A stretch of 64,000 bases of DNA from Thermoplasmatota archaeon (GCA_029762535.1 JARVGK010000007.1:44190-108189); one strand, 5' to 3'; shown: positions 7,170-33,780, numbered from the stretch's first letter. A program made the numbers and translations. The notes: generated by a model from the sequence alone, not told the origin.

Positions 7170-7250
7170 AAAATATATATTCTATATATGAATATATAGC
7201 CTATATCCTCTAATATAGTTTACGTATGTAAATCATATATATACTATGCA
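7170..7250 (+). promoter_or_regulatory. AT-rich promoter region of pst operon 1 with ~10-bp phased ATATA motifs (candidate archaeal Pho-box array)
   Basis: aaatatatat tctatatatg aatatatagc ctatatcctc taatatagtt directly upstream of pstS. Confidence 0.5.
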
Positions 7251-8294: not shown

Positions 8295-8295
8295 A

Positions 8296-10179: not shown

Positions 10180-10182
10180 GAC

Positions 10183-11004: not shown

Positions 11005-11012
11005 GTGATGTC

Positions 11013-11663
11013 ATGCCAGAAAAACTTGACGATGATATGCAGAAGTTGATGTCGGATATAACCGAGATGGCGAGTCTCTCCAAAGGCATGCTGATCGATT
11101 CCGTCCGAGCGCTCAAGGACCTTGACGGTGATCTCGCCAATGACATCATATCGAGAAAGGACAGGCTCTACGAGTACGATGACCGCATCGAGGAGCGGGC
11201 GTTGAAGATGCTCACGTTATACAGCCCCATGGCCTCGGACCTCAGAAGGATAGCCACCGTTTTCAAGATGATAACGTATCTGACAAGGATAGGCAGATAC
11301 GGATACGACATATCAAAGATAACCCTGCATCTGGTGGGCAAGCCCCACGTGAAGAAACTCATAGATATCCCGCGCATGGCCGAGATCGTGGCGGGGATGA
11401 TCGATGATGTCATAGGCGCATTCCACACGGGCGACCTTGATAGGATCGCGGACCTGGCAGAGAGGGACAATATCGTGGATGAGACGAGGTATTCGATATT
11501 CAGGGAGTGCCTCACATACATGATGGAGGACCCATCGACCATAACCCGATGCACGGATTACATAATGATCGCGAGATACCTTGAGAGATGCGGCGATCAC
11601 GCATGCAAGATCGGTGAGAAGGTTCATTACATGATAACTGGCGAAAGGGTCGAGATCTCATAA
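11013..11663 (+). CDS. phoU: Phosphate signalling/uptake regulator PhoU
   Basis: PMASDLRRI and LERCGDHACKI motifs; follows pstB. Confidence 0.93.
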   Translation: MPEKLDDDMQKLMSDITEMASLSKGMLIDSVRALKDLDGDLANDIISRKDRLYEYDDRIEERALKMLTLYSPMASDLRRIATVFKMITYLTRIGRYGYDISKITLHLVGKPHVKKLIDIPRMAEIVAGMIDDVIGAFHTGDLDRIADLAERDNIVDETRYSIFRECLTYMMEDPSTITRCTDYIMIARYLERCGDHACKIGEKVHYMITGERVEIS

Positions 11664-11675
11664 GGAGGATCCTCC

Positions 11676-12080
11676 TTGAAGAAGAGCGTTCTGATAATCT
11701 GCACTCAGAACTCGGCGAGGTCCCAGATGGCCGAGGCCATACTCAGGCATCTGAAAAGCGATGAATATGATGCTTTTAGCGCCGGGACGGATCCAACTTT
11801 CGTCCATCCCGGGGCCATCGATACCTTGAAGGAGGCGGGGATCGACACCACCCGTTTGAGATCGAAATCCGCCCTGGAATATCTCGGACGTGATTTCGAT
11901 CTGGTGGTGACCGTCTGCGACAGGGCCAAGGAGAAATGCCCGTTCTTCCCGGGGGCCAAAGAGACCGAGCACAGCGGCTTCACGGATCCCGCCGATCTTA
12001 TGGCCCAGGGCCTGTCCCAGCGCGAGGCCTTTGCAGAGGTCCGGGACAGGATCCGCCGGTGGATAGAGGATAGGTTCTGA
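11676..12080 (+). CDS. arsC: Arsenate reductase ArsC (LMW-PTP fold, thioredoxin type)
   Basis: P-loop CTQNSARSQMAE; redox Cys pair VTVCDRAKEKCP; DP motif. Confidence 0.9.
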   Translation: MKKSVLIICTQNSARSQMAEAILRHLKSDEYDAFSAGTDPTFVHPGAIDTLKEAGIDTTRLRSKSALEYLGRDFDLVVTVCDRAKEKCPFFPGAKETEHSGFTDPADLMAQGLSQREAFAEVRDRIRRWIEDRF

Positions 12081-12195
12081 AATATATAAAATATATATCT
12101 TTCCGGGCTTTATATACAAGATATAGGGAATATTAATATCCTCTTCTTTGATTCCCGCGCTTGTAGAACGCGATAAAGCTTTGAAAGGTTGCGGG

Positions 12196-13269
12196 ATGGG
12201 AAATATGCTGTTCGATGGACCCGTGCGGAGAATGGAGAGGATATACTCCGGTTCACCTGGCAAAAGGATCGATGACTCGGACAGGATAGTGATATTCTCC
12301 GACATGCACATGGGGAACAAGGGAAGGGCGGACGATTTCAAGGACAATGCCCACATCTTCAAAACGGCCATGACCTCCCTCTATGTACCTGAGGATTTCG
12401 ATCTGATCATGAACGGGGACATAGAGGAGCTGCACAAGTTCAGGCCCAGGAGCGTCATGGATAGCTGGAAGGGCATATACGAAATGTTCAACGGCGCACT
12501 CGACAGAGGCGGTCTGGACAAGATATCGGGGAACCACGACCATAGGATCTGGCATACGGGGGTCCCGAACAGGGTCTCGGATATCATGACCGACGGATTG
12601 AAGCTCAGGTTCGGGTCCGACACTATTTTCGTCATGCACGGGCACCAGGCCTCGCTCAGGGCCGAGTCGCTGGAGAGATGGGTCCACTACGGGCTCAGGT
12701 ACGGGGCCTCCCCCATAGGATTGAAGAACTATTCCTTCCCCCACGAGAGCGAACTCAAGTTCAGGATAGAGGAGAGGGTATATGATTTCTCGAAGAGGAA
12801 GAGGATTATGACGATAATAGGGCACACACACCGCCCCCTCTTCGAATCCATGTCCAGGGCGGACTCGTTGAAGTTCAAGCTGGAGAGGCTGCTCAGGGAT
12901 TACACTGACTCCACCGGGGATGAAAAGGCCAGGATCGAGAGGAACATACACATATACCATGCCGAGCTCGAGCGTCTCCTGCACAAGAACCCGAGGCCCG
13001 CCATGAGGGAGAGCCTCTACAACAGGGGCGTTCTGGTCCCGAACCTGTTCAACTCGGGATCATGCATAGGCAGGAAAGGGATAACGGCCCTTGAGATAGA
13101 GAACGGGAGGATCTCGCTCGTGTACTGGTTCGATGCCGATAGGTCCACGAAATATTTCAACTACAACGGATTCAAACCCCAACGGGCGGAAGGATCCTCC
13201 ATCTACAGGGTCGTTCTGAAGGAAGAGGACCTCTCCTACATATTCTCCAGGATCAATCTGCTCTCTTGA
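12196..13269 (+). CDS. Calcineurin-like metallophosphoesterase (LpxH/PlcP-like family)
   Basis: SDMHMG, GDIEE, GNHD, HGH, GHTH and NSG motifs; ATG 12196 preferred over TTG 12148. Confidence 0.85.
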   Translation: MGNMLFDGPVRRMERIYSGSPGKRIDDSDRIVIFSDMHMGNKGRADDFKDNAHIFKTAMTSLYVPEDFDLIMNGDIEELHKFRPRSVMDSWKGIYEMFNGALDRGGLDKISGNHDHRIWHTGVPNRVSDIMTDGLKLRFGSDTIFVMHGHQASLRAESLERWVHYGLRYGASPIGLKNYSFPHESELKFRIEERVYDFSKRKRIMTIIGHTHRPLFESMSRADSLKFKLERLLRDYTDSTGDEKARIERNIHIYHAELERLLHKNPRPAMRESLYNRGVLVPNLFNSGSCIGRKGITALEIENGRISLVYWFDADRSTKYFNYNGFKPQRAEGSSIYRVVLKEEDLSYIFSRINLLS

Positions 13270-13273
13270 GATC

Positions 13274-13696
13274 TCAATGGCAGTAAGGGGTGAGGTCGCA
13301 GAGCTTCGAAGCGTTCACCTGCTTGAGCTTGCTCCTTTTACCCTTCTGGTACGGAAGCTCGTCCTGAACATCGATATGGATGGAGGGGGAGTTCCTTTCC
13401 ATTGTCACAGGGTCGATCTTCCGTCCTATCCTCTGAACCTCTCCGTTCTTGCATATGCAGGTGTGGACGTCCCTTAGACGGTCTATCAGATAGCAGAACT
13501 CGCTCTCGTCGAGCTTCGAACCGGTCTTCTTCTGGTCATCCTTGAAGACGTAACCCAGCCCCTCGATGAAGACCGTCCCGTCATCGATGATCTCCTCCTC
13601 CCATTCCTCGTACTTGCCCAGGGACCTGAAGAAGAGAAATCCCAGACCGGCCAGGAATAGCGTTATGGCGGATAGCGTCAGCCCGGAGATGATCAT
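13274..13696 (-). CDS. Hypothetical single-pass membrane protein
   Basis: N-terminal TM helix followed by a charged region. Confidence 0.6.
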   Translation of the reverse strand: MIISGLTLSAITLFLAGLGFLFFRSLGKYEEWEEEIIDDGTVFIEGLGYVFKDDQKKTGSKLDESEFCYLIDRLRDVHTCICKNGEVQRIGRKIDPVTMERNSPSIHIDVQDELPYQKGKRSKLKQVNASKLCDLTPYCH

Positions 13697-13849
13697 GAGT
13701 ATGGTCTGCGTGATATCGCCTCTTATATGCTGTTTATACGAATCTGGATAACGTTTTTTATCCTTGCCTATGTACTAGATAGACACTATTTAGCCGGATA
13801 TAGTCTATAGATAATATGGCGCGGCATTCTCACAAGTGGTACTTCCGGG

Positions 13850-14668
13850 TCACCAATCGTATGTGGAAGAGGTTGTGGACCTCATCCCGAACTGATCGGC
13901 CACATCGAGCCGTATCGAGTAGGTCATCGGTGACATCGGGAACGTGACCCTGGCCATCCTTCCGTTGAGGGGGAATTCCAGGTCGGGAGTTCCCGGGAGA
14001 CCATCATGGTCATATGAGATCGTCCAGTCCCAGCTCAATATCTCTCCGCCCACCCCCGGATGATCGGAAAGCGAACCGTCGAGGACCGGGACCGATATGT
14101 ACGATGCCGACCCCGCATCCCATTCCGTCTGGGTCCTTACAACGAAGACAGGGGACGGAGGGAGGAAGTTCCTGTTGAACGAGTTCCCGTAGCTGGTGGA
14201 TATCTTGATGTTCAGATAGGACGTGAGCGCTATGTCCTTGTCCCCGCCGAAGAAGTAAGTGTCCGGATATACGATAATCGTCACCTGCTCAGTCGAATCC
14301 AATTTGCCCCAGGAGGCGTAATCCGTCCCGGTCTCGAGGAGAACTCCGTTCTTCATGATATCGAACTTCTCGACGACGTGTTCGTTTATGCTTATCATCC
14401 TGATGTAGGAGGTGCCCTCATGGAAGCTGGCGATGATCAATCCGATCTCGAACCACTCCGTTCCGGCAAGGTTCTCCTGAAGCGATATGGAGGATATGCC
14501 TATCTTCTCATTATCGCTGAGGTCCTGTATCCTCTGGTTCCTCTGGTACGCGTCCTGGCGGTCAGCCACGAAAACGGCGAACGATGTGGCGGCGACGACG
14601 ACGATCAGAACGAGTATCAACGCTCCGACCACCTCGGAGACTCCCGAACCGCCCTTGATCTTCTTCAT
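13850..14668 (-). CDS. Archaeal type IV pilin-like protein (class III signal peptide) with C-terminal PKD-like module
   Basis: MKKIKGGSG|VSEVVGALILVLIVVVAATSFAVFV N-terminus; LDGSLSDHP..SWDW..YSIRLDVAD C-terminus. Confidence 0.85.
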   Translation of the reverse strand: MKKIKGGSGVSEVVGALILVLIVVVAATSFAVFVADRQDAYQRNQRIQDLSDNEKIGISSISLQENLAGTEWFEIGLIIASFHEGTSYIRMISINEHVVEKFDIMKNGVLLETGTDYASWGKLDSTEQVTIIVYPDTYFFGGDKDIALTSYLNIKISTSYGNSFNRNFLPPSPVFVVRTQTEWDAGSASYISVPVLDGSLSDHPGVGGEILSWDWTISYDHDGLPGTPDLEFPLNGRMARVTFPMSPMTYSIRLDVADQFGMRSTTSSTYDW

Positions 14669-14844
14669 CCTCGATGCTATGAGGGACTATCTAGATAAAA
14701 TGCATCAATGTATAGCCGATATTATATGGAGTGGAATATAGGACTATGAAGATACATTACTTCTATATGGGTCAGGTTTAAACGAGACGGGGTTCTACAG
14801 CGTTACCCGGGTAAAAGAGAACCTGGCAGTATGGATGTTTCGAG

Positions 14845-15459
14845 ATGGCATTGAAGATACCCGTTCCCGGAATGGACCAGTTCCTATGCGACATACCGGA
14901 CGGTTCGATGCTCGTGATGTCCGGGGGCTTCGAGGGCACACAGTCATTCCTCGCACAGTCCATCGGGTACGGGGCCTACAAATCCGGAAGGGAGGTGACC
15001 TACGTCACCTCGAGGGCGATCCCGGACATCATGGGCGAGGTAATGAGATTCGAACCGGGAGTGGTCCCTTTCTACCTTATAGAGAACGTGCCTCTAAATG
15101 ATTGGAGAACGTTCATATCCTCAAAATGCGTCCTGATAGTGGACTCATACTCCCTGCTCGTTATGAACGTGGAACTCCCTCAACTGAGGGACGGGCTGAT
15201 GGAGATCAAGACGATTGCGAAGGAGCGCGGGGCCACGTTGGTCCTTGTGGCCCACCCTCCTCTCATCGATGAAAGGAGAACGTCCGTCACGGAATACTTC
15301 GCCGACTCTCTTGTCGAGTTCAGGTCCCAGGAGGAGGACGAGTTCGTACGAAGATACCTGAGGGTCCACAAATGGTACGGTACGATACTGGAGCAGCTTA
15401 TCTACTACAGGATCGATGAAGGGCGAATGGAGATAGACCTCAGGGCCAGGATAGTGTGA
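14845..15459 (+). CDS. RecA-superfamily KaiC/RAD55/ArlH-like protein with degenerate Walker A
   Basis: IPVPGMDQFL..IPDGS, VTYVT, LIVDSYS, ADSLVEF and RYLRVHK pattern; P-loop position reads SGGFEGTQS. Confidence 0.75.
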   Translation: MALKIPVPGMDQFLCDIPDGSMLVMSGGFEGTQSFLAQSIGYGAYKSGREVTYVTSRAIPDIMGEVMRFEPGVVPFYLIENVPLNDWRTFISSKCVLIVDSYSLLVMNVELPQLRDGLMEIKTIAKERGATLVLVAHPPLIDERRTSVTEYFADSLVEFRSQEEDEFVRRYLRVHKWYGTILEQLIYYRIDEGRMEIDLRARIV

Positions 15460-15469
15460 GGACGTTCTT

Positions 15470-16984
15470 ATGATACAATCCAAGGGATACGAGAGATTCG
15501 GCCTAACGGGCAACCCTTTCCGGGACCTTGCCTCCGAGACGCTCGAGACCATCGACATCTTCCACGTCAGACAGGAGATGGACGATCATCTGCGAATGAT
15601 AATCGACGAGATCTTCGAGAAGCAGTCCAAGGCGGTCGTGGCCATACTCGGAGCCCTGGGCATGGGCAAGACCCAGAGGCTTCTCCTGATCCAGAGCTGG
15701 GCCAGGGATAAGAAGGCCTACTGCGTGTTCAGGTCCATCAATCCCCAGGCAAAGCTCGTCATAAGCGATGTCATAAAGACCTTGATCGATACGGTCCCCC
15801 TGACATTCTTCGAGAGGAACATCTCCGCGCCCAGATTCTATTCGGACCTGAAGAAGGCATACAGGTCCTCCCGGAAGAAGTTCGACCCGGAACTGATCGG
15901 CAGGGCCATCGCCGGAGCCCTCAACGCCCGTTCCCCTTCGATACTTATACTTAACGACCTTCACAACGTCGATCCAACGGCCGAGCTGCCGGATTTCCTT
16001 CAGGTGCTGTATTCCATAGTCAACAACCTGGACGAGGGCGTCATGATAGCGATAGGGTCCAACTCCGCATATTTCGACGGGATAATGAAGAGGCATCAGT
16101 CCCTCGAGGAGAGGATAAACTACAAGCTGGAGGTGCAGCCCCTCATAGACACGGAGGCCCAGGAGATGGTGGCGAAGAGGCTGACGGCGAAGAGGCTCGT
16201 CGAGGACCTAAACCCCATATACCCCTTCAACAACGATTCCATATCGATATTGAACTCGGAATCACATGGAAATCCCCGGCAGGTCCTCAAGCTCTCGGAC
16301 AGGATCATCGACCAGGCCGCGACCGAGAGGGTCATACAGATAGACGCCCAGTATGCGATGGATATACTCGAGGGATCGAGACAGAAGAGGTCCCTTCCTC
16401 CGGCCCCCCATGAGATCCTCAAGAAGCTGAGGGAGGAGGCCAGGGTCAAGAGGCCGGCCATCCCGTCTCGGACCCCCCCGGGCATCTCAACAGAGTTCGA
16501 GAAGAAGGTCAAGGAATACGAGCATGCCCTGGAGAAGATGGAGAAGGCCCTGGAGAGGAAAGAACCCCTGCCTGAAAAAGAGAAGAGGATGCCCGGGGCA
16601 GCGGTCAAGGTCGATCTCCCGGTCGATGCTCCTCTGGAGGTCGCTCCATCGATGCCCGATCCGATCGGGACGGTGCCCCCGGTCAAGGTCGATCTCCCCG
16701 TCGATACTCCTCTGGAGGTCGCTCCCCCGATGACCGGTCCTACCACGATCGTGCCCAAGCCCTCCCTGGACGAGGAGCTGCCGCTCATCATCAAGAAGAA
16801 GGTGACGATGAGAAAATTGGAGACCGTCACCGAGGACGGCATTCCGGCGCCTCCGAAGAGCATCTTCATAATTGAGGAGAGGGAAATGCCCGGTCCTCCC
16901 AGGAAAGAGAAGGGTTCCAAGGGCGAACCGTCCGAGGATGCCGTTCTCTCCAGGTACAGGTCGGTTCCTCCGACGCGGAGTTAA
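15470..16984 (+). CDS. P-loop AAA-type ATPase with Pro-rich low-complexity C-terminal tail
   Basis: FGLTGNPF N-terminus, Walker A GALGMGKT, Walker B-like LILND, GNPRQV. Confidence 0.8.
   Translation: MIQSKGYERFGLTGNPFRDLASETLETIDIFHVRQEMDDHLRMIIDEIFEKQSKAVVAILGALGMGKTQRLLLIQSWARDKKAYCVFRSINPQAKLVISDVIKTLIDTVPLTFFERNISAPRFYSDLKKAYRSSRKKFDPELIGRAIAGALNARSPSILILNDLHNVDPTAELPDFLQVLYSIVNNLDEGVMIAIGSNSAYFDGIMKRHQSLEERINYKLEVQPLIDTEAQEMVAKRLTAKRLVEDLNPIYPFNNDSISILNSESHGNPRQVLKLSDRIIDQAATERVIQIDAQYAMDILEGSRQKRSLPPAPHEILKKLREEARVKRPAIPSRTPPGISTEFEKKVKEYEHALEKMEKALERKEPLPEKEKRMPGAAVKVDLPVDAPLEVAPSMPDPIGTVPPVKVDLPVDTPLEVAPPMTGPTTIVPKPSLDEELPLIIKKKVTMRKLETVTEDGIPAPPKSIFIIEEREMPGPPRKEKGSKGEPSEDAVLSRYRSVPPTRS
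16602..16740 (+). repeat. Intragenic tandem duplication with 78-bp period (VKVDLPVDxPLEVAPxMxxP)
   Basis: cggtcaaggtcgatctccc..gtcgat.ctcctctggaggtcgctcc occurs at 16602 and 16680. Confidence 0.85.
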
Positions 16985-17118
16985 TGCAGTAAGTATCCTA
17001 CTTTTATCTATGTAAACCACTGTCCCTAACGCCTGGTATATCATATTATTTAGAGTAAATTATTGCCGTAGGCAGGGCTTAAGGCATGTATCGGTCCTCG
17101 GTGTCCTCGGTGTAGGAC

Positions 17119-17376
17119 ATGATACGGGAACTAAGGCATCAAACGGTGGTCGAGGCCATCTGGAACAGAGGGGGCTGCGCCTCCATGAAGGACATCGAGA
17201 ACTTGATGTACCAGCATCTCAAGGGGCCTTACCACTCCGATCTGGGCTTCATGTATCTGGAGGACCGAACGGCGATCATGAGGCTCAAGATCGACGAGAT
17301 CCTCGACGACCTGCGCAGGAACGGGCTCGTTGAGATGATCGATGAGGACCTGTTCGCACTCACCGACGCCTCGTAG
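17119..17376 (+). CDS. Small hypothetical protein, possibly winged-helix
   Basis: 85 aa; ILDDLRRNGLVEM..LFALT wing-like ending. Confidence 0.55.
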   Translation: MIRELRHQTVVEAIWNRGGCASMKDIENLMYQHLKGPYHSDLGFMYLEDRTAIMRLKIDEILDDLRRNGLVEMIDEDLFALTDAS

Positions 17377-17436
17377 ATGTAGATGCATCTTCCATGGTCC
17401 GAACGAAGCGTGGGCGCAAGACCCGATCCGCTCAGG

Positions 17437-18840
17437 CTAGAACACGGCTATGGAGAATAGAAGGACCACGACCAGGGCGAGAACGAGCGAGTGTACCAGT
17501 CCGTAGCGGATCTTGCCCTCGGTTATCTTCCCTATTATCGTTCCAGATCCGATCCCCATTATGATCGCCAGATGGAAGAAGCGCCTCTTCAGCGTCAGAA
17601 GCCCCATCTTGACGACAGATGCGCCCCCTTCCGACCCTTCGAGTCCCTGGAAGCCGAAGACCATGGACATGTCCAGATTCTCGAACTTGGGATAGACGTC
17701 CATAAGCATGTATATGACCGTGAGGAGAACGCCCAAGGCCATGTATATTATAGTTATCTGAATGGTCATCTGCCTCCTTCTCTCGGCCTTGACCTTCACG
17801 AAATCGTCCAGATCCCTCGCAGCCCTGTGCACGACGACGGCTATGTTGCCCCCTATCTTCGTTGATTCGGCGATGAGCGTCGTGTACCTCTTCACCACCC
17901 TGCTGTTCGAGGGAGCGGCCACGATGTCCAGGGCCTCTTCGAACGCCCGCCCCGCCATGATGTTCTTCGAGGCGATCCTGAGGTATTTTGACATGACGCT
18001 CGAGTCGGTCTTCGCTATCTCGACTATCGCCCTGGCCGGGTCTATGCCGCCTCTCATTCCGTCCGCGATCCCGAACAGGAGCTGGGCGAACGCCGCCTCG
18101 TACCTGTTTATCCTCTTGAGCTCCCTCTGCGAGTCGATCGCGTACGGGGTCGTTCCGATGAAGAAACCGATTATCAGAACGATCTCGATCCCGAACCTTC
18201 CCAGGTCCGGATGGTCGTGGACGTAGAATAGTCCCAGTATGGTGAAGGTGATGGCGGTGAGGATCGGTACGTAGAGTATTAGATACTTCTGCTGCACCGG
18301 ATGCGTTATGAGGAACTTCTTGAGCCTGAATCTCCTCTTGGCCCTCAGATAGATATAACCGGATATGGCCAGTACCGCGAGGATGGCGAATATCACGCTG
18401 ATGAAAACGAGGACCTGCATCGAGGAGGGGAGGGTGAGTTCGAACCCGGGCTCCGGTTCGTCGCTGACGATGAAGACCGAATCGACCATCGCCTCGTTCC
18501 CCGCGTTGTCCCTGATGATGAAGGTGAGATTGTGCGGGCCGCTCGATAGGGTGTATATAGTGTCTATCTTGACCGTCATGTCGGTCTCGTTCACTATGAG
18601 GTCGAAGTAGGCGGAGACGTCGAAATCGTCGATGTAAAGAACCGCGCTTCCCGTGTCAATGCCCGAATAATCGGTGTACTTTATCTGTATCACCGGGTTG
18701 GGATCGTATATGGTCTGGTTCGCCGCGGGATAGACCAGGGTGACGATCGGCGGATCCGTGTCCTCTGCTGATGCATAGGACATGATGAGGACCAGGGGCA
18801 ACAGGAGAAGGACCGCTGCGGGGAACGTGAACGATCTCAT
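17437..18840 (-). CDS. Type IV filament platform protein (T2SS-F/TadC/ArlJ family) with N-terminal exported Ig-like domain
   Basis: Signal peptide plus DTDPPIVTL..HNLTFIIRDNAGN Ig-like domain, then TMs and the F domain (FAQLLFGIADGMRGG..GRAFEEAL..GGNI..GKITEG). Confidence 0.85.
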   Translation of the reverse strand: MRSFTFPAAVLLLLPLVLIMSYASAEDTDPPIVTLVYPAANQTIYDPNPVIQIKYTDYSGIDTGSAVLYIDDFDVSAYFDLIVNETDMTVKIDTIYTLSSGPHNLTFIIRDNAGNEAMVDSVFIVSDEPEPGFELTLPSSMQVLVFISVIFAILAVLAISGYIYLRAKRRFRLKKFLITHPVQQKYLILYVPILTAITFTILGLFYVHDHPDLGRFGIEIVLIIGFFIGTTPYAIDSQRELKRINRYEAAFAQLLFGIADGMRGGIDPARAIVEIAKTDSSVMSKYLRIASKNIMAGRAFEEALDIVAAPSNSRVVKRYTTLIAESTKIGGNIAVVVHRAARDLDDFVKVKAERRRQMTIQITIIYMALGVLLTVIYMLMDVYPKFENLDMSMVFGFQGLEGSEGGASVVKMGLLTLKRRFFHLAIIMGIGSGTIIGKITEGKIRYGLVHSLVLALVVVLLFSIAVF

Positions 18841-19749
18841 TCAATCCACCTTTGCATAGGATGCCGATATGAACAGGTTCATGGCGATCACGGAGAAGGG
18901 GATCAGGAAATATGTCATGATTATGAGAAGGGTGCTCGCGTCTATCCCGTTGAACGTCGATGCCAGCGTCTCCATGAGGAACGCCGCCACCCCGGCGAAC
19001 AATATTCCCATCAGCACCAGGCTGGTATAGATCTCCATCAGGGTGCCGAGGCCCTCTATGAACTCCTTCTGTATGTCCCTCTTGAGTTTGAGGCTCGCAT
19101 CGGCCTTGTTCCTGAGATACGTGTCCATGTCGCCGCCCTCGTGTATCATGTTCGAGAAGTCCCAGAGCATCTCCCTGAGATGCTGGGAGGGAGTCTCCTT
19201 GGCCGTCTCGCTTATGGCGGTGATTATGTCCTTCCCCTCCACGTCCAGGTGGTATATTATCTTCCTGAACTCCCTGGACATGTACTTCGAGTCCTTTCTC
19301 TGGGAGATCTTCCTCATTATCTGAACCGGGGAGAGGCCGGTGGATGCCAGGATGGAGAGCTCGCTCATGGTGAAGGGCAGCTCCTTGTCTATCTCCGACT
19401 TCTTCTTGGATATCCTCGAGGAGATGATAAGGGGATAGGAGAATATCGTGACGAGAAGGGAGACGGCAAAGAGCGAGGCCGTGAACAAGGGCCAGCCTTC
19501 CACGTTGAACATCACCCTGAAGACGAGTATGGATATGATAAGGACCGCCGCGGCCGAGAACAGCGTGGCGTATAACATCATGGAGAGGTACATCCCCGGG
19601 GACATGTTCACGTCCCCCTTGGACAGCCTGAGCTTGAGCCGGTTCATGTCGTATTTTAGATCCAATGTGCGACCAAGGGACTGATAGGAGAAACGCTTGT
19701 ACCTCTCCAGGAACCCCTCCCAGGCGGAGGGGTCATCCTTTCTTGACAT
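18841..19749 (-). CDS. Type IV filament platform protein (T2SS-F/TadB/ArlJ family)
   Basis: IDKELPF..LASTG, GKDIITAI, TPSQHLRE and GGDMDTYL motifs; overlaps the ATPase gene. Confidence 0.9.
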   Translation of the reverse strand: MSRKDDPSAWEGFLERYKRFSYQSLGRTLDLKYDMNRLKLRLSKGDVNMSPGMYLSMMLYATLFSAAAVLIISILVFRVMFNVEGWPLFTASLFAVSLLVTIFSYPLIISSRISKKKSEIDKELPFTMSELSILASTGLSPVQIMRKISQRKDSKYMSREFRKIIYHLDVEGKDIITAISETAKETPSQHLREMLWDFSNMIHEGGDMDTYLRNKADASLKLKRDIQKEFIEGLGTLMEIYTSLVLMGILFAGVAAFLMETLASTFNGIDASTLLIIMTYFLIPFSVIAMNLFISASYAKVD

Positions 19750-21484
19750 CGATGGCCCCCATCGATTCGAGGTTGACCATGGCCTTCGTGGGGTCCATGT
19801 AGAATTCGTTTATCGCCCTGCTCACGTCCTTGTAATACGTCAGGTTCTTCTGGTCCATCAGCTTGAGGTATTTCTCCTTGCGGTATATCTCGTCCATTAT
19901 GGACTGGAGCGTCTTTCCGGTCGATCTCGCTATGTCCTCTATCAGGAAGCTCCTCCCCGTGAACTTGAACGCATCGTTCGTGGGATCCCACGTGAAGGGG
20001 GCGTTCGTCAGAAGGTTCTTTGAGGATGGCTCGATGTCCAGGACCTCCGTCACGCCCTTGACGCGCCTGACCCTCCTGCCCCTGTACACGACCTGCCCCT
20101 GGAAAACGACGGCGTCGAGCGACATGAACAGGGACCTGGGTATGTCCATCGGGGGGTTCTCCACCCTGTGTATCAGCTCGTCGATGGAGCCGGCGTGTAT
20201 CGTCGCCATCGCGGCGTGCCCGACGGCTATGGCCTGGAACAGGGTGAACGCCTCCTTGCCCCTGACCTCCCCCACTATCACGTATTCCGGTCTCTGTCTC
20301 AGGGCCGCTACCAGCAGGTCGAACATCGATATGCTCCCCGAGGACCCTCCCGAGGCGCTGACCCCGAACCCCCCCCTTGATACGGACTGTATCCAGTTGG
20401 TGTGGTCGATGTGGATCTCGGGGGTGTCCTCTATGGAGACCACCTTGTCCTCCGGCTTCACGAACATGCACAGCGCGTTCATGAGCGTGGTCTTGCCCGA
20501 GGCCGTGCCTCCGGAGATGAGAAGCGACCTCTTATACTCGATTATCGTCCAGAAGTAGGCGAGCTGGAAGGCGGAGATCGATCCGAACCTCATGAGGTCC
20601 ACAGGTGAGATGGGATCGTGGGAGAACTTCCTTATCGTGAAGGTGGAACCTTTTCTCGTGACCTCGGAGCCCAGCGTCAGGTTGATCCTCGAGCCGTCGG
20701 TGAGGGTGGCGTCGAGTATGGGCTGATAGACGGAGACGTGCTTTCCGGCGACCTGGGCGAGTTTTACGACATAGCGGTTCAGCTCCACATCGGAGGGGAA
20801 TTGTATGTTGGTCTTCATTGACCCCATCCCCCTGTGGAATATGTAGATGGGGATGTTGGGTCCGTTGCAGGATATGTCCTCTATGAACGGGTCCTTGATG
20901 AGGGCGTCCGCCCTCCCCCAGCCGATGAGGTCCCTCTGGAGGTAGTAGAAGAGGACGCGCCTCCTCTTCTCGTCAAGGTCTATGTTGTAGAGGTCCAGAA
21001 CTGACTGGTAGAGGCCGAGTATGTAGTTCCTGAGCTGGTCGGAGCGTCCGTACTCGGAACCCTCGGAGATCGGGAGCTCGTCCTGGTCCATTGCGACCTC
21101 CATCTTCGACTTTATGCTCTGGATGAGGTCCTCCTCGCCCTCTTTGAGCCTGGGCTCCTTTATGAGGTACTTCATCTCGCCCTCTTTTCTGTCATATGTG
21201 ATGTTGACGAAGGAATAAGGAGGGTTCACCGGATAGGTCAGGTTGACCCCGAGCTTCTCCTTGTCCAGTTCCCGCCTCATGAAGTTGAGCTCGCGCTGGA
21301 TGATTATCTTCTCGGAGATCTCGCCTTTCTTCCTCAGCTGGGATTCGATCTCGCGGGCGCGCTTTCGAAGCTTTTCCCGGAACTCGGGATCCTCCATCCT
21401 GTCGTCCGTGAGCTTCTCCTTCTTCATGAAGGGCAGGTCCGCCGATGCGGTCCATTTTACAATTCTATCCATTAATCCTGTCAA
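19733..21484 (-). CDS. Type II/IV secretion (PilB/ArlI/VirB11-family) assembly ATPase
   Basis: DPFIEDISCNG, TIRKF, Walker A GGTASGKT, Asp box EDTPE, ALRQRPEYVIVGEVRG, His box GHAAMATIH. Confidence 0.95.
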   Translation of the reverse strand: MTGLMDRIVKWTASADLPFMKKEKLTDDRMEDPEFREKLRKRAREIESQLRKKGEISEKIIIQRELNFMRRELDKEKLGVNLTYPVNPPYSFVNITYDRKEGEMKYLIKEPRLKEGEEDLIQSIKSKMEVAMDQDELPISEGSEYGRSDQLRNYILGLYQSVLDLYNIDLDEKRRRVLFYYLQRDLIGWGRADALIKDPFIEDISCNGPNIPIYIFHRGMGSMKTNIQFPSDVELNRYVVKLAQVAGKHVSVYQPILDATLTDGSRINLTLGSEVTRKGSTFTIRKFSHDPISPVDLMRFGSISAFQLAYFWTIIEYKRSLLISGGTASGKTTLMNALCMFVKPEDKVVSIEDTPEIHIDHTNWIQSVSRGGFGVSASGGSSGSISMFDLLVAALRQRPEYVIVGEVRGKEAFTLFQAIAVGHAAMATIHAGSIDELIHRVENPPMDIPRSLFMSLDAVVFQGQVVYRGRRVRRVKGVTEVLDIEPSSKNLLTNAPFTWDPTNDAFKFTGRSFLIEDIARSTGKTLQSIMDEIYRKEKYLKLMDQKNLTYYKDVSRAINEFYMDPTKAMVNLESMGAIDVKKG

Positions 21485-21685
21485 GGCGCCTTGGCTACTC
21501 TTATTACGATATTAATTACTGTTTCACGTAAAGGACATACAATATATAGGGATACGGAGGGGATCTTTCCCCAATGGAGAGGAAGTTGGGATCGGTAAGA
21601 CAAGACAACTATTTGGAGAACGCCTATATGCCCTTCTTTGGGTCAGGGAAATGGGTCCCGAAGGGGATCCAAGTAGGTGAAAGAA

Positions 21686-22825
21686 ATGAAGCACATGAAA
21701 AACGACAAGGCAGGGGTCTCCCCGGTCATTGCCACGTTGATATTGGTGCTCATCGCCGTAGCGGCGGGAGTTGCCTTTTTCGCATGGCAGTCTGGCTGGC
21801 AGGAAGACGCCACAGGTAACATAAGCAATGCGAACGCACAGACGGAGATAACCATCGGTGGATCCTCCACCGTCTATCCTTTCACGGCAGTTGCGGCTGA
21901 GGCTTTCATGGAAGCCAACCCCACCGTGAAGATCTCCTACCAGTCCGGTGGATCCGGTGCAGGAACCGCTGGCGTCAGGGAGGGTGTCATCGATATCGGT
22001 GCCGCCTCCTCCGACAGGACCCAGGCCAAGCACTTCCCCGACCACCCCGACGTGGTCATCACCGCCGTCGGCTATGACGCCGTCGGTGTCGTCGTCGATG
22101 ATGGCAACACCAGGATAAACGATATCAACGCAACCGTCGCAATCGAGATCTTCACAATGGTCATCACCGACTGGAACCAGGTCCCTGTTGCATCTGGCGC
22201 GTCCGGAACTGGCACAACTGGTGCAGCTGGTTCTGAGACCACTGTAACAGTCTCCACCGGAACCCTTGCAATTGGCAGGTACAGGATGTGGTCTGCAACA
22301 ACTCTCGTGAGGACTGTCGATGTTATAGCTGCAAATACGCTCCCCTCAGATCTCTTCGGAGCATCCGCATCCATCTCCTGGCAGGTTATCACCTCCGCTA
22401 CCTCCGCTCCTATCGAAGTCTACGACAGGGCTGACAAGTCCGGAACCGAGGAGTGCTTCAACGAGAAGCTCCTCGGCCTCGATGGATCCTCCATCCCCGA
22501 AGGTGATCAGACCGGTGTCGCAGGCAATCAGGAAATGCTCGACCTCTTCGAGGCTGGCGCACCCAACGCTATCGGATTCATCTCCACCGGTGTCGCCACC
22601 TCCGATGTGAAGCTCGTCACCCTCGACGGCGTCGCCGCCACCGAGGAGAACATCGCTGACGGGTCCTACACCGCCCAGAGGCCCCTGAACTATATGTACA
22701 TCCCCTCCCAGCTCGGCGGAAAGCTCGCCATCGTTGAGGCGTACATAGACTTCTGCATGTCCCCCAAGAACAATATTGACTTCGCCCACTCCGTGGACTA
22801 CCTCTCCTGGTATGACCTCGAGTAA
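21686..22825 (+). CDS. pstS: Type IV pilin N-terminus fused to a PstS phosphate-binding domain (PstS copy 2)
   Basis: MKHMKNDKAG|VSPVIATLILVLIAVAAGVAFFAW class III signal; PstS motifs GGSSTV, SGGSGAG, IGAASS, YDAVGVVV, RADKSGT, IGF, QRPL; SD aggtga before ATG 21686. Confidence 0.9.
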   Translation: MKHMKNDKAGVSPVIATLILVLIAVAAGVAFFAWQSGWQEDATGNISNANAQTEITIGGSSTVYPFTAVAAEAFMEANPTVKISYQSGGSGAGTAGVREGVIDIGAASSDRTQAKHFPDHPDVVITAVGYDAVGVVVDDGNTRINDINATVAIEIFTMVITDWNQVPVASGASGTGTTGAAGSETTVTVSTGTLAIGRYRMWSATTLVRTVDVIAANTLPSDLFGASASISWQVITSATSAPIEVYDRADKSGTEECFNEKLLGLDGSSIPEGDQTGVAGNQEMLDLFEAGAPNAIGFISTGVATSDVKLVTLDGVAATEENIADGSYTAQRPLNYMYIPSQLGGKLAIVEAYIDFCMSPKNNIDFAHSVDYLSWYDLE

Positions 22826-22858
22826 TCGGGTTGATGGCAAAATATCAAATAACATCTC

Positions 22859-22891
22859 GGAGGGTTTTTTATTAAACCCTCCTTTTTTTTT
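22859..22891 (+). terminator. Hairpin plus poly-T terminator/attenuator after pilin-PstS
   Basis: GGAGGGTTT (22859-67) pairs with AAACCCTCC (22874-82), followed by T9. Confidence 0.75.
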
Positions 22892-22938
22892 ATTTTCTTT
22901 CTTTTTGAAATGTTTCGTCTCTAGGATAGGGTAGTAAA

Positions 22939-25900
22939 ATGGATCTCAAGGTTCCGAATTGGGCTGTTGCGATAGTTCAGGCATTGATATTCGTCATAAT
23001 CTTCTTCCCCGCCCTCTTCGCATTGGACTCATTCTATCTACAATTGCCTTTCTTCATCCTGGAATTGATCATGATCTTCATCGTTCTCACCAAGAAGGAT
23101 ATGAGATTCTTTTACATGTTCTGGCAGTTCCAGATATATCTCCTCATTCTATTCAAGGTGATATTCGATTACAATACAACGTTCAAGACGATCGATTCTG
23201 AACCATTGGCGATCATTGTCATCTCGTTCTTCATAACATTCCTGGAAGCATTGATCCTTGTGGGATTCATCCTTCGGGAAAAGGGCGTTAAGCCCATACT
23301 TGTGACACTGTCCTCAACGACCAGCATCGTTGTGCTGCTCATTATCATTTTTATTTTCAAGGAAGGTCTCCCGGCTTTTTCGGAGAACGATCCTATCGAG
23401 TTCTTGACAGGAAATAGCTGGACGGCAGATTATGAACCATCCTTGGAAGATACGATCCTGATCGAGGTCGTTGTTTCGGATTACGATCACGAAATATCGA
23501 TACCGGATGATAGGCTGTATCTCGCAATAGATGAGAACCATACTGTTCCCATCGATCTGAAGAACACCGGATCGAAGGATGATACCTATCTGTTAAGTTT
23601 GGAATATCCCTCCGGTCTATCGGTTCAGGATCATCAAAGAACTGTTTTTTTAAGATCTGGATCGGATCATACTTTCGATATCGATCTTTCTTCAAATATT
23701 TCCATGGACTTGGATCTGAGGATCATTGTGGGATCCATGAATGGAAGTATATCAAAGGAAAGGACAATAGACCTGGCTTTCGGAGACGTTGGGATCGATG
23801 CGGGGCCGGAGTACTTCCATTATCTGAATTCGGAGATGAATGTCCCTCGCACTCCTTTTTGGGTGAAGAATACCGGGAACGTAGTTGAGACCTATTCCGT
23901 GACATTGACCTTCGATGAAGAGATCATCAAACCTTTTGTGACCGGGACCGACAATGATTGGGACCACGATAACGATACAGTTGACATCACCCTGGACCCC
24001 ATGGAAACCGTTTCCTTCAACGTGATAACAAGGATCCTGAACCTTCGCCCGTTCAGGTCTACAATAACGATCGATGTCGTGTCAAGGACGGATCCCGGCA
24101 TATATGACAGCATAGTGATCGACTTCGAGTATCGGGACAGGAGCTATTTCGATCACGATCAAACTTCTTTCGTCGTATCCAAAGGCTCCGATGTCATCAT
24201 CCCGGTCTTCGTCAATATCACAAACCCGGCAAATTCCAATTTCTTCATACTGGTTGAAGATGGGAACGGGCCCCTGGAGACCTTCAGCCTATCGTATGAT
24301 TCCGTAAATATCGATGAAATCGATGAAAAGGTTCCGATCAACCTATCATCGGGTATGAAGACCCTTCTATTGACCGTCAGGTCCAATTCGAATATCGGAG
24401 GATCGGAGAATATCACCCTTAATATCACATTGGAGAGGGAAGGGACCTATCCTTCCTTCGGCATCGGCCCGATGATCGTCGGCACGTTCATCACCGTCCT
24501 TGTCGCATTGATCATAGCCGTTCCATTAGGACTGGGTACGGCGATCTTTTTGGCGGAATACTGCCCCAAGAAACTGCACATCTTCCTGCGTCCTATGTTC
24601 GAACTTTTGGCCGGGATCCCTTCGATAGTTTACGGCCTCTGGGGATATTTCACATTGGTACCCTTCTTCAGGGACAACATATACGGCCCGGTGAGTGGAT
24701 CTTTGGGATTGGCGATCCCCTTCCTAAGGATCACACCGGAGACCCCCAGTTCCGAGGGGACCGTGATCGTTGCCGGTTTCGTCCTATCAATTATGATACT
24801 TCCGATCATCATAACCCTTTCCGAAGATTCTATACGAGCCGTTGCCAGGAGCCTGAAGGAGGGATCGCTCTCATTGGCCACGACTAAATGGCAGACGATA
24901 AGAGGCGTGGTCCTGAAAAGAGCGAAAAGCGGGATCATATCCTCTATCATTTTGGCCATGGGAAGGGCCATAGGCGAGACCATGGCTGTTATAATGATAC
25001 TCAGGATAGCGACGAATTATCCGAGTTCGCTCTTCGAACGGGCAGGGTCAATGACCGCGGTCATCGCCGGGACCTTCGGATGGGCATTCGATCTCGATCT
25101 TTCAAGACATGCCGTCTTTGGGGTTGCGATCGTGCTGTTCATGATCGTCTTCGTTCTTAACCTGATAGTCTTCAGGATACAGAACGGTGAGAAGAAGGGA
25201 AGTATCGCTTTCCGGTGGGTAAATCGTATCGTCGAGAAGGCCATCAATTATTGTTTCAGGAAAAAAGAAGACATGAGGACCCTTCCGACCAAGGGACCGG
25301 TGTTCGATAAAAAGAATATGACATCACTTGGCTTTTTACGGTTCCAGGAATACCTGTTCAGGTCATTGTTCGCGCTATCGGCAATAGTGATCTTCATATT
25401 CCTCCTGCTTGTCCTAAGCAATGTTTTCATTACGGGAATATCATCGATGAAATTATACTATCTTTTCGAAAAGGAAGTCGCGGGAGGATTGGAGGACGGT
25501 GGATTCCTCAATGCCATTCTCGGTTCCCTTCAGCTGACGTTCTTGGCATTATTGATCTCCTCCATATTCTCGTTGGGAGCGGCCATATACATTACACAGT
25601 TCAGCAAACAGAACAATATCCTAACGAGGACCATACTCTTCTCTTCCGATACCCTTGCTGCGACGCCTTCGATCGTATTCGGGGCATTTGGGTTCATTTT
25701 CTTCTCCATCGAGCTCAAACTAGGCCTGTCGATGTTGTCGGCAGCGCTTACTCTGTCAATAATGGTGATCCCCCTCCTTTTAAGAAGTTCGATAGAAGCT
25801 CTCAACAGCATACCCAGAGAGCTTGGGGATGGTTCCCTGGCATTGGGAGCGAGTAAATGGCAGACGGTGTGGAACGTGATATTGCCGCCGGCATTGGGGG

Positions 25901-26184
25901 GAATATCAAGTGGCGTTATCCTTTCCATCGGCAGGGCCATCGGAGAGACGGCGGCCATCCTTTTCACGGCAGGTTATGCCCTGACCATAAACAACTCCAT
26001 AATGTCATCGGTTGCGACCATGCCGAATATGATCTACAATTACTATGGTCTCAGCTCCCACAATCCCGCCCTTCAGGATAAATTATATTCATGTGCCCTT
26101 GTCTTGATCGTCCTGGTATTGATCCTGAACTCCATCGCCCGTTTATCACAGATAAGAACGAACAAATTGAAGGGGAATTATTAG
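22939..26184 (+). CDS. pstC: Large PstC-PstA fusion permease (copy 2) with extra N-terminal TMs and extracellular Ig-like insertion
   Basis: FLTGNSW...PSFGIGPMIVGT split by a ~340-aa insert; ELLAGIPSIVYG, GRAIGETMAV, TLAATPSIVFG, GRAIGETAA. Confidence 0.9.
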   Translation: MDLKVPNWAVAIVQALIFVIIFFPALFALDSFYLQLPFFILELIMIFIVLTKKDMRFFYMFWQFQIYLLILFKVIFDYNTTFKTIDSEPLAIIVISFFITFLEALILVGFILREKGVKPILVTLSSTTSIVVLLIIIFIFKEGLPAFSENDPIEFLTGNSWTADYEPSLEDTILIEVVVSDYDHEISIPDDRLYLAIDENHTVPIDLKNTGSKDDTYLLSLEYPSGLSVQDHQRTVFLRSGSDHTFDIDLSSNISMDLDLRIIVGSMNGSISKERTIDLAFGDVGIDAGPEYFHYLNSEMNVPRTPFWVKNTGNVVETYSVTLTFDEEIIKPFVTGTDNDWDHDNDTVDITLDPMETVSFNVITRILNLRPFRSTITIDVVSRTDPGIYDSIVIDFEYRDRSYFDHDQTSFVVSKGSDVIIPVFVNITNPANSNFFILVEDGNGPLETFSLSYDSVNIDEIDEKVPINLSSGMKTLLLTVRSNSNIGGSENITLNITLEREGTYPSFGIGPMIVGTFITVLVALIIAVPLGLGTAIFLAEYCPKKLHIFLRPMFELLAGIPSIVYGLWGYFTLVPFFRDNIYGPVSGSLGLAIPFLRITPETPSSEGTVIVAGFVLSIMILPIIITLSEDSIRAVARSLKEGSLSLATTKWQTIRGVVLKRAKSGIISSIILAMGRAIGETMAVIMILRIATNYPSSLFERAGSMTAVIAGTFGWAFDLDLSRHAVFGVAIVLFMIVFVLNLIVFRIQNGEKKGSIAFRWVNRIVEKAINYCFRKKEDMRTLPTKGPVFDKKNMTSLGFLRFQEYLFRSLFALSAIVIFIFLLLVLSNVFITGISSMKLYYLFEKEVAGGLEDGGFLNAILGSLQLTFLALLISSIFSLGAAIYITQFSKQNNILTRTILFSSDTLAATPSIVFGAFGFIFFSIELKLGLSMLSAALTLSIMVIPLLLRSSIEALNSIPRELGDGSLALGASKWQTVWNVILPPALGGISSGVILSIGRAIGETAAILFTAGYALTINNSIMSSVATMPNMIYNYYGLSSHNPALQDKLYSCALVLIVLVLILNSIARLSQIRTNKLKGNY

Positions 26185-26787: not shown

Positions 26788-28014
26788 ATGTTGATAGAGT
26801 TCAAGCTCAGGAACTTCAGGTCCATCAGGGACGAGATGACCTTCAGCCTGCTGGCATCGAGCGACAGGACGCATTCCCAGAACTTAATCGTTCACGATGC
26901 ATTGAAAAAGGACCTTCTGCTTAAGAGCGCCGTGATCTACGGCGCCAACGCTTCGGGTAAGACCAACGTTCTTCTGGGTTTGAACACCCTAAGAGGACTT
27001 GTCGTCCATTCTCACAGCAACCAGATAGGTCAGGAGCTTCCTTACGAGCCGTTCAGATTGGACGAAAGGGCCGGGTCCGACGATACCTCCTTCCGGATCG
27101 CATACATTCATAAGGACATCAAGTACATCTACGAGCTCTCCTACAACAGGGAAAAGGTTGTTGATGAGGTTCTCTACAGCTATCCGCAGGGAAGAAGGTC
27201 GTTGCTCTTTTCAAGGACCGGAACGGATAATTACAGGTTCACCAAAGATGAAAAGGAGCAGACCCTGATCAAAGAAAGGACACCCCCGAACGTCCTCTAC
27301 CTTTCAAGGGCCGCACAGTTCAACTACCAACCTGCAATAGATGCGTTCGAATGGTTCAAGGAAAAGCTGAAATTTATAGGACCTTCCGACCATATCAATC
27401 TGATGAAGTTCACAAGCAAAATGCTGGAGGACCCCAAGAGCAAGGACATGATCCTTCAGGGGCTCAGGACCGCGGACCTCGGGATAGACGATGTCATCCT
27501 CAACAATGTCACTATCAGGGCCGAGGAGCTGCCCGGGGACCTCCCTTCGGAGCTAAAGGATAGGTTGGTAGGCTCCGAACGTACTAGGATATTGACATAT
27601 CATAAGGGTGTTCCGTTTGACCTTTCAGATGATGAGTCCGAAGGCACCAAGAGAATGTTCCATCTGATCGGACCCGTAATAAAAGCTCTCAACGATTCAC
27701 AGGTCCTCCTGATAGACGAGCTCGATACAAAGCTCCATCACCTTATGAACATCTTTTTGATAGAGCTGTTCCAGAATACCGACAACCCTTCATCCCAGCT
27801 CGTGTTCACAACACACAACACAACCCTTCTCGAATCCGAACTCTTCAGAAGGGACCAGATATGGTTCACCGAAAGACGGCCTGATGACGATTCGACCGAC
27901 CTCTACTCTCTCCTTGAGTTCCACCCCAGAAACGATGCGAACATAAAGATAGGATACCTGTCGGGAAGGTACGGTGCCATACCTCTCATCAAGAGCGAAA
28001 GGTTGTGCCCATGA
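26788..28014 (+). CDS. ABC-like AAA_21 ATPase (RloA/AbiLi type)
   Basis: NFRSI, GANASGKT, ESEGTK, LLIDE, FTTH, LFRRDQIWF, YLSGRYGAIP. Confidence 0.9.
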   Translation: MLIEFKLRNFRSIRDEMTFSLLASSDRTHSQNLIVHDALKKDLLLKSAVIYGANASGKTNVLLGLNTLRGLVVHSHSNQIGQELPYEPFRLDERAGSDDTSFRIAYIHKDIKYIYELSYNREKVVDEVLYSYPQGRRSLLFSRTGTDNYRFTKDEKEQTLIKERTPPNVLYLSRAAQFNYQPAIDAFEWFKEKLKFIGPSDHINLMKFTSKMLEDPKSKDMILQGLRTADLGIDDVILNNVTIRAEELPGDLPSELKDRLVGSERTRILTYHKGVPFDLSDDESEGTKRMFHLIGPVIKALNDSQVLLIDELDTKLHHLMNIFLIELFQNTDNPSSQLVFTTHNTTLLESELFRRDQIWFTERRPDDDSTDLYSLLEFHPRNDANIKIGYLSGRYGAIPLIKSERLCP

Positions 28015-28634
28015 CCGAAAGAGGCTATTCCAGGAGAAGGGACCGAACGCGGCGTTCCTTTAACACGGTCCTCGTTGTCTGTGAAGGGCTCAAGACGGAA
28101 AGGATATATCTGAAAGGATTGAACGAAAGGTACGGTCGTGTTCATATCCTACCTGTTCATTCCGGTTCGACCGATGTCAGGTCCATGGTAAGATTTGCTG
28201 TGGGAAAGAGAAGGGAATACCAGTTCCGGGAAGGGGACGGGAACGAGACCTGGTGCGTCTTCGACGTGGATGAGAAGGACGATGATGAGCTCCTTCAATG
28301 GATCCCATATGCAGAAAGGAACGGTGTGATGGTGGCTCTCTCCAATCCTTCTTTTGAGCTCTGGTACCTCCTTCATTTCGATTACAGGCCCGGTCCGACC
28401 GACAGGTACAAGGTCCTGGAGGACCTGAAAAGGTCCATACCTGATTACGAGAAGAGCGGTTGTTACAATCATATCCTTTACCCCCTGACCATGAATGCAA
28501 TAGATAATTCCAAACGATTGAACAAAGAACATTCAAGGATAGGAGTTGACCTTAACTCCAAAAAGGCCAACCCATCGACCCAGGTCTTCAAGCTTATCGA
28601 AGCGGTCAAACTTTTAAAAGAAAGGAATGGATAA
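28011..28634 (+). CDS. rloB: RloB-family (AbiLii-like, Toprim-fold) protein
   Basis: VVCEG.KTE..Y, WCVFDVD, SNPSFELWYLLHF, NPSTQV; ATGA coupling with the upstream ATPase. Confidence 0.9.
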   Translation: MTERGYSRRRDRTRRSFNTVLVVCEGLKTERIYLKGLNERYGRVHILPVHSGSTDVRSMVRFAVGKRREYQFREGDGNETWCVFDVDEKDDDELLQWIPYAERNGVMVALSNPSFELWYLLHFDYRPGPTDRYKVLEDLKRSIPDYEKSGCYNHILYPLTMNAIDNSKRLNKEHSRIGVDLNSKKANPSTQVFKLIEAVKLLKERNG

Positions 28635-31863: not shown

Positions 31864-31927
31864 GCGACCATATTCGCTATCAAGGTAGTTTATGATTGTC
31901 AATATATAATATATTGGACCATATATA

Positions 31928-33714: not shown

Positions 33715-33780
33715 GCGGAAAAGCCATATGGAACACGATATTTGTATATGTTCAATATATTTTATATGCCAAACTATATT

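Follow-up and report, generated by a model that had tools for sequence, protein, structure and literature searches.

The pilin-PstS gene and its neighbors

Here we describe a 64,000-nucleotide stretch of DNA (hereafter the window; contig G000:C80) from a sediment Thermoplasmatota archaeon, probably from mud, in which a gene encoding a pilin N-terminus fused to a phosphate-binding PstS domain (pilin-PstS, 379 aa; positions 21686-22825, forward strand) is divergent from the genes of a type IV filament (T4F) assembly machine and is followed by an enlarged phosphate permease. An earlier interpretation made from the DNA alone (the sequence-only reading) had proposed that the cluster at 13850-26184 encodes a phosphate-scavenging filament, or "phosphate bindosome," set inside a phosphate region. 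All of the genes that it named are present where it placed them, and profile matches confirmed their families. The phosphate region was found as well. It comprises a canonical operon of lipoprotein pstS, fused pstCA (627 aa), pstB, and phoU, as judged from gene calls and families (7275-11663, forward strand), and, on the other side of the cluster, a second PstB gene (pstB2; 32959-33714, reverse strand; TIGR00972 with 385 bits against a cut-off of 343) together with two AbrB-PhoU fusion regulators assigned by family match (30916-33247, reverse strand). Of the two PstB proteins encoded in the window, the second is the probable motor of the large permease, so that the likely PstB of the module and its regulators (30916-33714) lie beyond the range first proposed.

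The N-terminus of pilin-PstS had been taken for that of a class III pilin, and this assignment is well supported. The archaellin/pilin N-domain TIGR02537 matches at 22.5 bits (cut-off 20), a short basic leader ends in K-A-G and gives way to the pilin helix (residues 13 to 44), and 18 of the first 26 mature residues are identical to the filament core of Iho670, whose mature sequence aligns from its residue 1 with V11 of pilin-PstS. The alignment places the predicted cleavage after Gly10 (K-A-G / V-S-P), giving a putative leader peptide encoded at 21686-21715 on the forward strand. In 206 distinct homologues, collected with a pattern blind to the cleavage site, Gly or Ala occupies position −1 without exception (206/206), and K or R occurs among the eight residues before it in 204. 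From +1 to the first ligand motif the stalk measures 45 to 55 residues (mode, 47) in the homologues where it could be measured, compared with mostly 10 to 18 residues for the tethers of lipoprotein PstS proteins. Thus, the N-terminus looks like that of a filament-forming pilin more than like a generic anchor. The host genome also encodes a prepilin peptidase (contig G000:C14, 310 aa, PF01478 over the cut-off and a weak PF06847 match). Two further observations concern other N-termini and peptidases. A pilin-PstS gene of another archaeal type (L043:2732-6468), on a 6.7-kb contig that carries no ATPase, is followed 2 kb downstream by a gene for a prepilin peptidase, and a pilin N-terminal motif in the host genome (G000:C69:100480-100563) falls inside a 2,538-aa open frame that might encode a giant pilin-like adhesin.

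Beyond its N-domain, pilin-PstS matches the PBP_like_2/PstS family. In its predicted model (pLDDT 86), a helix of 32 residues is joined by a short linker to a PstS fold, for which the best structural matches are 4gd5 and 4q8r, both of them PBP-1 of Clostridium perfringens (E values of 6e-20 and 4e-19; TM score of 0.87 by target). The phosphate contacts of PBP-1 are conserved at all nine positions, with exchanges between Ser and Thr: S60, S61, T62, S90, S108, R248, S252, G253, and T254 align with S11, T12, S13, S41, S59, R125, S129, G130, and T131, and these positions are near invariant across the 206 homologues. The sequence-only reading had called the domain intact, which is true of its fold and ligands but not of its continuity, since alignment and model agree on a β-rich insertion of about 70 residues in the second lobe (residues ~167-238; 22184-22399, forward strand). 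The matching span varies from 6 to 225 residues across homologues, and the insertion is probably the reason why TIGR02136 stays below its cut-off (145 versus 207). Scanning genome contigs with this single protein as query returned only distant bacterial PstS proteins, and codon bias told nothing about whether the subunit is made in high copy (84th percentile against a ribosomal-protein reference, dominated by GC3). Related arrangements were also seen elsewhere: soil-type loci carry additional PstS-like genes with other N-termini near pilin-PstS (L038:12924-16882 and L084:5692-6912), and several related proteins from a representative search (e.g., P0088, P0129, and P0140) have long extensions ahead of the PstS part.

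The gene that follows encodes a 1,081-aa fused PstC-PstA permease (22939-26184, forward strand), in which four extra N-terminal membrane helices precede a PstC part, with some 340 residues inserted in its first outer loop, and a PstA part. The enlarged permease proposed from the DNA withstood scrutiny, in that TIGR02138 and TIGR00974 both score over their cut-offs and the transport residues are kept, in motifs at 675 and 998 (R676/E680 match R237/E241 of Escherichia coli PstC, and R999 matches the R220 motif of PstA). By structure comparison, the inserted part of this P1 loop holds three tandem immunoglobulin (Ig)-like β-sandwich domains (about residues 181 to 282, 285 to 399, and 410 to 500; 23416-24453, forward strand), of which the first two match Ig-like domains with Z scores of 10 to 12.6. 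The position of the insertion recalls the P2 loop of MalF, which grips maltose-binding protein. In E. coli, the P1 loop faces PstS and reaches into its cleft (PMC12976172). A predicted complex of the PstS domain with the PstC ectodomain scored 0.00 and is not counted as evidence; a word-based search with the permease ectodomain found only the ectodomain itself, and atlas matches were all below 0.9.

On the reverse strand, divergent from pilin-PstS, lie the PilB/ArlI-type ATPase and two platform genes that the sequence-only reading had recognized. The ATPase (19733-21484) matches T2SSE (PF00437) with 112 bits and has intact Walker A, Walker B, and His box motifs, and both T2SSF/TadC platform proteins score over the PF00482 cut-off. 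The smaller one has 302 aa (18841-19749). The larger one (17437-18840, 467 aa) has a signal-peptide-like start and a weak Ig-like match (Big_3_2) ahead of its T2SSF part, predicting an extracellular Ig-like domain, and this topology is common to its Thermoplasmatota-type homologues. The KaiC/ArlH-like gene (14845-15459, forward strand) was found by family match and alignment, but its Walker A motif is degenerate, the lysine motif being lost in the aligned homologues listed and in the consensus of 37, which suggests that the protein is probably not an active ATPase and more likely an adaptor. Next to it, an AAA ATPase is encoded at 15470-16984 (forward strand) as an AAA_22-like protein with a match below the cut-off, an intact Walker A motif, and a variable low-complexity tail; it weakly resembles ExeA-type ATPases, which we take as a lead only. 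The AAA proteins of one family (loci L053, L054, L144 to L148, and L151) end in a zinc-ribbon motif that the window copy lacks. The second pilin was confirmed too, at 13850-14668 (reverse strand; 272 aa, Pilin_N PF07790 over the cut-off), and is probably a minor or priming pilin. The conserved locus yielded no small major pilin, from which we infer that the PstS fusion may fill the PilA slot of the four-part model (PMC4858521).

Conserved linkage and the ATPase and permease lineages

To judge how stable this arrangement is, we gathered 103 pilin-PstS loci, selected by PstS, from assemblies, metagenomes, and genomes. They contain 78 distinct Thermoplasmatota-type proteins, 50 of which have at least 1.5 kb of upstream DNA and are thus informative, and a divergent upstream ATPase was present in all 50. 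The linkage between pilin-PstS and ATPase is far beyond chance, with the proviso that kin among the loci are not independent, although PstS identity extends down to 27%. In the long loci, defined as 24 clusters of types A and B with 9 kb upstream, both platform genes, the KaiC-like gene, and the AAA gene were invariably found (24/24), as was a pst or phoU gene within 11 kb (24/24), and the second pilin was detected in 21. Lack of synteny in related genomes, which the sequence-only reading had named as an argument against itself, was checked and did not hold: the gene order is kept down to roughly 27% PstS identity.

Since these loci had been chosen by PstS, a reverse test was run from the ATPase side. 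Across 401 Thermoplasmatota genomes, ATPase identity was 57 to 64% in 12 genomes and at most 49% in the other matches listed. Pilin-PstS occurs in 10 of the 401, all of them among these 12, and in the other two genomes of the ATPase clade the contig stops at the ATPase start. The distribution is patchy, with 2 of 24 genomes in the host's family. In a local tree, the pst-linked ATPases form one clade (SH-aLRT 99), whose sister is the methanogen-type pst-linked ATPase (96, on a long branch), and the four other secretion ATPases of the host genome, including the archaellum motor, fall outside it. These results support a dedicated ATPase clade that, by its sequence relationships, is tied to pilin-PstS. 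A related version occurs in the methanogen-like loci L096 and L097; in the former (L096:9821-16885), a single strand encodes pilin-PstS, PstC and PstA as ordinary separate proteins, the ATPase, and both platforms. The host genome also has a fourth pilus-type ATPase of 600 aa on contig G000:C33 (L137:12571-17007), with no T2SSF neighbor detected and flanked by an unassigned 547-aa gene and a PBP_like_2 gene. We considered the latter as a second copy of the pilin-PstS arrangement and rejected it because it encodes a lipoprotein without the PstS motif.

The exclusiveness of the ATPase clade bears on the possibility that the pilin helix is an anchor and nothing else, tethering PstS beside the permease, and that the pilus built by the machine is a co-regulated one, made of the second pilin or of the three stand-alone pilins found elsewhere in the host genome. 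The approximately 25 residues beyond the membrane might well let an unassembled subunit reach the permease, and 1,376 class III binding proteins come from genomes without a T4F locus (PMC13705601). Yet an anchor has no need of a near-invariant, Iho670-like helix of fixed length, nor would it call for an ATPase clade that was not seen without pilin-PstS except at two contig ends, and we regard this explanation as distinctly unlikely. That the machine handles the PstS-pilin itself is, in our judgment, highly probable.

The permease shows a comparable pattern within the sub-lineage of the window. A permease of more than 900 aa lies downstream in 15 of 16 informative type A loci, and the pilin-linked permeases (seven of the 16 rows in the tree) form one clade (100/99), which groups, with moderate support (89/90), with the permeases that follow methanogen-type pilin-PstS, apart from the lipoprotein-linked ones. 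The 1,081-aa PstC-PstA is thus supported, at the level of sequence, as a separate, dedicated paralogue. In L032, L034, and L041, a PstB gene lies downstream of the large permease, at most about 5 kb away, and the AbrB-PhoU family flanks the module in most long loci. The probable PstB and the AbrB-PhoU pair of the window lie beyond an inserted RloA/RloB-like pair and are nearer the permease in its relatives. Ig-bearing fused PstCA genes were also noted behind ordinary lipoprotein pstS (L156:6001-9909 and L153:604-3492), and in L156 this permease adjoins the pilin module, giving a genome with two Ig-bearing permeases.

Proposed assembly and phosphate capture, and competing explanations

At the gene level, features by which archaeal T4F are recognized are present, namely an intact ATPase, platforms, and class III pilins, with the peptidase in the genome. 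Synteny, the ATPase clade, the permease paralogue, and the pilin-like N-terminus together support the proposed phosphate-scavenging filament at the genomic and structural level. The sequence establishes which parts there are, that their linkage is conserved, that the ATPase and the permease have dedicated lineages, and that pilin-PstS has its helix and its ligand positions; building on this, we infer the later steps as follows. The prepilin peptidase of the genome would remove the 10-residue leader, and the ATPase and the two platforms, primed by the second pilin, would build a filament or short pseudopilus through the cell wall, with the PstS-pilin as its chief subunit and with PstS heads that would bind phosphate on the outside. 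On disassembly, loaded subunits would rejoin the membrane pool and dock on the PstC-PstA inherited along with them, which PstB would drive and whose Ig stalk, in the P1 loop, possibly serves as a docking arm or wall-spanning spacer. The AbrB-PhoU regulators, finally, might turn the module on together with the ordinary pst operon. We consider it probable that the purpose is phosphate acquisition, and give an even chance to the reading as a whole, in which phosphate-binding pilins are built by a dedicated machine into a filament or pseudopilus supplying a dedicated permease, the hand-over being the presumed part. Hand-over by extension and retraction specifically is doubtful. It is tempting to speculate further that a dynamic filament with the PstS fusion as its major pilin grows out through the wall and works as a nutrient conveyor, of which every subunit loads phosphate and is delivered by depolymerization to the co-evolved permease, a tentative picture that is on balance more likely wrong than right.

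The subunit size does not forbid a filament, since a rough volume estimate allows a 13- to 16-nm homopolymer of PstS-pilin. This estimate, together with a helix that is closest to a true filament core and a permease that keeps its transport residues, speaks against the view that single subunits or small oligomers are pushed into the wall layer for positioning, as in the Sulfolobus bindosome (Bas), with no free filament formed, or that, in a sensing variant, a chain of PstS, permease, and PhoU reports the phosphate status to control the machine. Such a role would match what was seen for Bas (PMC3047682). The predicted extracellular Ig domains on platform and permease would suit a wall-spanning scaffold, and the AbrB-PhoU and degenerate KaiC-like proteins are stable neighbors, so that we keep positioning or sensing as an explanation, albeit an improbable one.

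Co-regulation of the assembly genes with pst was approached through a dyad, TATAG-N-CTAT, derived from the intergenic DNA that separates the ATPase gene and pstS in 15 other loci. The best site in the window lies at 7193-7206 (forward strand), and further sites are at 13798-13811, 14709-14722, 21537-21550 (weak), and 33773-33786. For this dyad, the upstream region of the host's canonical pstS ranks first or second of 455 intergenic regions, where the motif window was chosen after the ranking in the host genome had been seen; the dyad also scores high at the host pstB2. A shuffle test upstream of canonical pstS was passed in three of three module-carrying genomes (P values of 0.01, 0.044, and 0.002), compared with 8 of 100 control regions. 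The dyad was not enriched in non-training type A promoters (0/10), and a plain count of TATAG was not discriminating. A promoter element shared between the T4F genes and pst is a candidate suggested by these sequence comparisons.

Several observations weigh against a filament that feeds a dedicated permease. The classical FlaFind pattern has K or R at −2, and the window pilin-PstS, with Ala at this position, falls outside it; K or R is found there in 103 of the 206 homologues, and the host's archaellin and two of its three stand-alone pilins likewise lack it. No retraction ATPase is encoded in the locus. The candidate dyad is weak at the host's own ATPase/pstS divergent promoter (P ≈ 0.1) and showed no enrichment upstream of the canonical pstS in a set of genomes mostly free of the module (1/11, with some starts miscalled). 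Ig-bearing permeases also stand behind an ordinary lipoprotein PstS in G029 and L156, two cases that rule out the Ig stalk as a pilin-specific adaptor. Moreover, the link to a dedicated Pst transporter that had been drawn from the DNA holds in the sub-lineage of the window but mostly not in the soil sub-lineage, where a permease lies downstream in only 2 of 24 informative loci, indicating that a dedicated permease is not essential to the module. For Bas itself, an ordinary filament was not observed, and complexes formed when BasEF was absent (PMC3047682).

The scarcity of adjacent permeases in soil would be expected if the machine assembles the PstS-pilin into a phosphate-starvation adhesion pilus, whose heads are adhesins for phosphate minerals, phosphorylated surfaces, or cells, and for which phosphate uptake is a side benefit or the task of unassembled subunits. 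The variable PstS insertion resembles a diversifying surface decoration, and in Pseudomonas aeruginosa phosphate limitation induces PstS-rich appendages that mediate adherence (PMC2242829). An adhesin, though, would hardly account for a near-invariant set of ligands for a buried anion or for a separate permease lineage that travels with pilin-PstS in type A and in the methanogen type, and adhesion as the main purpose therefore appears unlikely to us.

Surrounding genes and comparison with known systems

Following phoU, 11676-13269 holds a low-molecular-weight phosphatase/ArsC-like gene and a calcineurin-like phosphoesterase gene, plausible partners in arsenate detoxification and phosphate release, and immediately 5′ of the canonical pstS an 858-aa STAND-type protein with HTH, NB-ARC-like, and TPR parts is encoded (4584-7160). 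A 140-aa membrane-anchored protein directly 3′ of the second pilin (13274-13696) was not found in related loci; the copy of the candidate dyad upstream of it is among the strongest in the genome. In the interval from the AAA gene to the large platform gene, an 85-aa open reading frame (17119-17376) possibly encodes a small winged-helix protein. The RloA/RloB-like pair of an AAA_21 and a RloB gene (26788-28634) occupies a stretch of lower GC content that separates the large permease from the pstB2/AbrB-PhoU operon and is probably an inserted defense or toxin-antitoxin element.

With respect to known filaments, the module is distinct from the archaellum (NF058587 with 410 bits against a cut-off of 550, and a degenerate ArlH-like Walker A), and the host has its own archaellum on contig C14 (686 bits, with archaellin and ArlCDE). 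Closer in composition are the euryarchaeal clade 2/system 2 type IV pili (Makarova 2016, PMC4858521), with which it shares the ATPase, the often paired tadC-like genes, one minor and one PilA-type pilin, and KaiC-like neighbors; in a purely local tree, the window ATPase also groups with other Thermoplasmatota pilus ATPases, apart from ArlI. Unlike in system 2, the PilA-type N-terminus bears a whole PstS, the locus lies among pst genes, and one platform has a predicted extracellular Ig domain. The resemblance to the Iho670 fiber of Ignicoccus hospitalis (5kyh and 3j1r) concerns the filament core (18/26 residues) and the large subunit (303 aa in Iho670), but Iho670 forms an adhesion filament, and the match to pilin-PstS stops before the PstS domain.

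As a transporter, the module agrees with E. coli PstSCAB (PMC12976172) and C. perfringens PBP-1 (PMC5381212) in the PBP-1-type fold and ligands, the PstC/PstA transport residues, PstB, and PhoU, and it differs from PstSCAB in having PstC and PstA as one fused protein, which bears four additional helices and, in the P1 loop, three Ig-like domains, and in that PstS is a pilin. The PstS appendages of P. aeruginosa (PMC2242829) resemble the predicted filament in that they hold PstS at the surface, are inducible by limiting phosphate, and are linked to a type II secretion-type machine. There, PstS is a surface cargo dependent on Hxc, with adhesion demonstrated, whereas here PstS itself bears the pilin helix.

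The name bindosome works as an analogy at the sequence level, denoting a class III binding protein served by a filament machine, but the module is not a member of Bas (subsystem 4I) by hidden Markov model cut-offs. BasE (NF053672) scores 193 bits against a cut-off of 1,000, no better than unrelated paralogues of the genome, and BasF (NF053673) scores 40 against 1,300, with two separate platform genes in its place; a single 272-aa accessory pilin stands against the BasABC trio, and the phylum is Thermoplasmatota as opposed to Sulfolobales only. In Saccharolobus solfataricus, BasEF and BasABC serve proteins that bind sugars (GlcS, AraS, and TreS; PMC3047682), in place of the phosphate-binding protein seen here. 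The Bas cargo is encoded in separate ABC loci (PMC13705601), whereas here cargo, machine, and permease share one conserved locus, with one cargo per machine, two platform genes, and an ATPase of an unrelated clade. Sivabalasarma and Albers (2026, PMC13705601) screened 4,397 class III binding-protein candidates, proposed that these functionalise archaeal T4F, and noted that their link to specific loci needs validation. This work predicts exactly the kind of device described here; phosphate goes unmentioned in its main text, and the domain list of its S9 Fig may include PstS. No description of a pilin-PstS module was found in a literature search that left most subscription papers beyond its reach. 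The general idea of a binding-protein pilus is therefore published, and the dedicated phosphate locus appears to be new.

Since 2007, the bindosome idea has rested on one Sulfolobus system without an ordinary filament seen. Here, cargo, machine, permease, and regulators are united in one locus with its own ATPase and permease lineages, which offers a test with one cargo and one machine under a simple inducing condition, phosphate limitation. If the conveyor picture were true, an ABC binding protein would itself be the structural subunit of a type IV filament, and, if phosphate capture by such a filament is real, sediment and soil archaea would have an added route of phosphate scavenging, and type IV filaments a new function.

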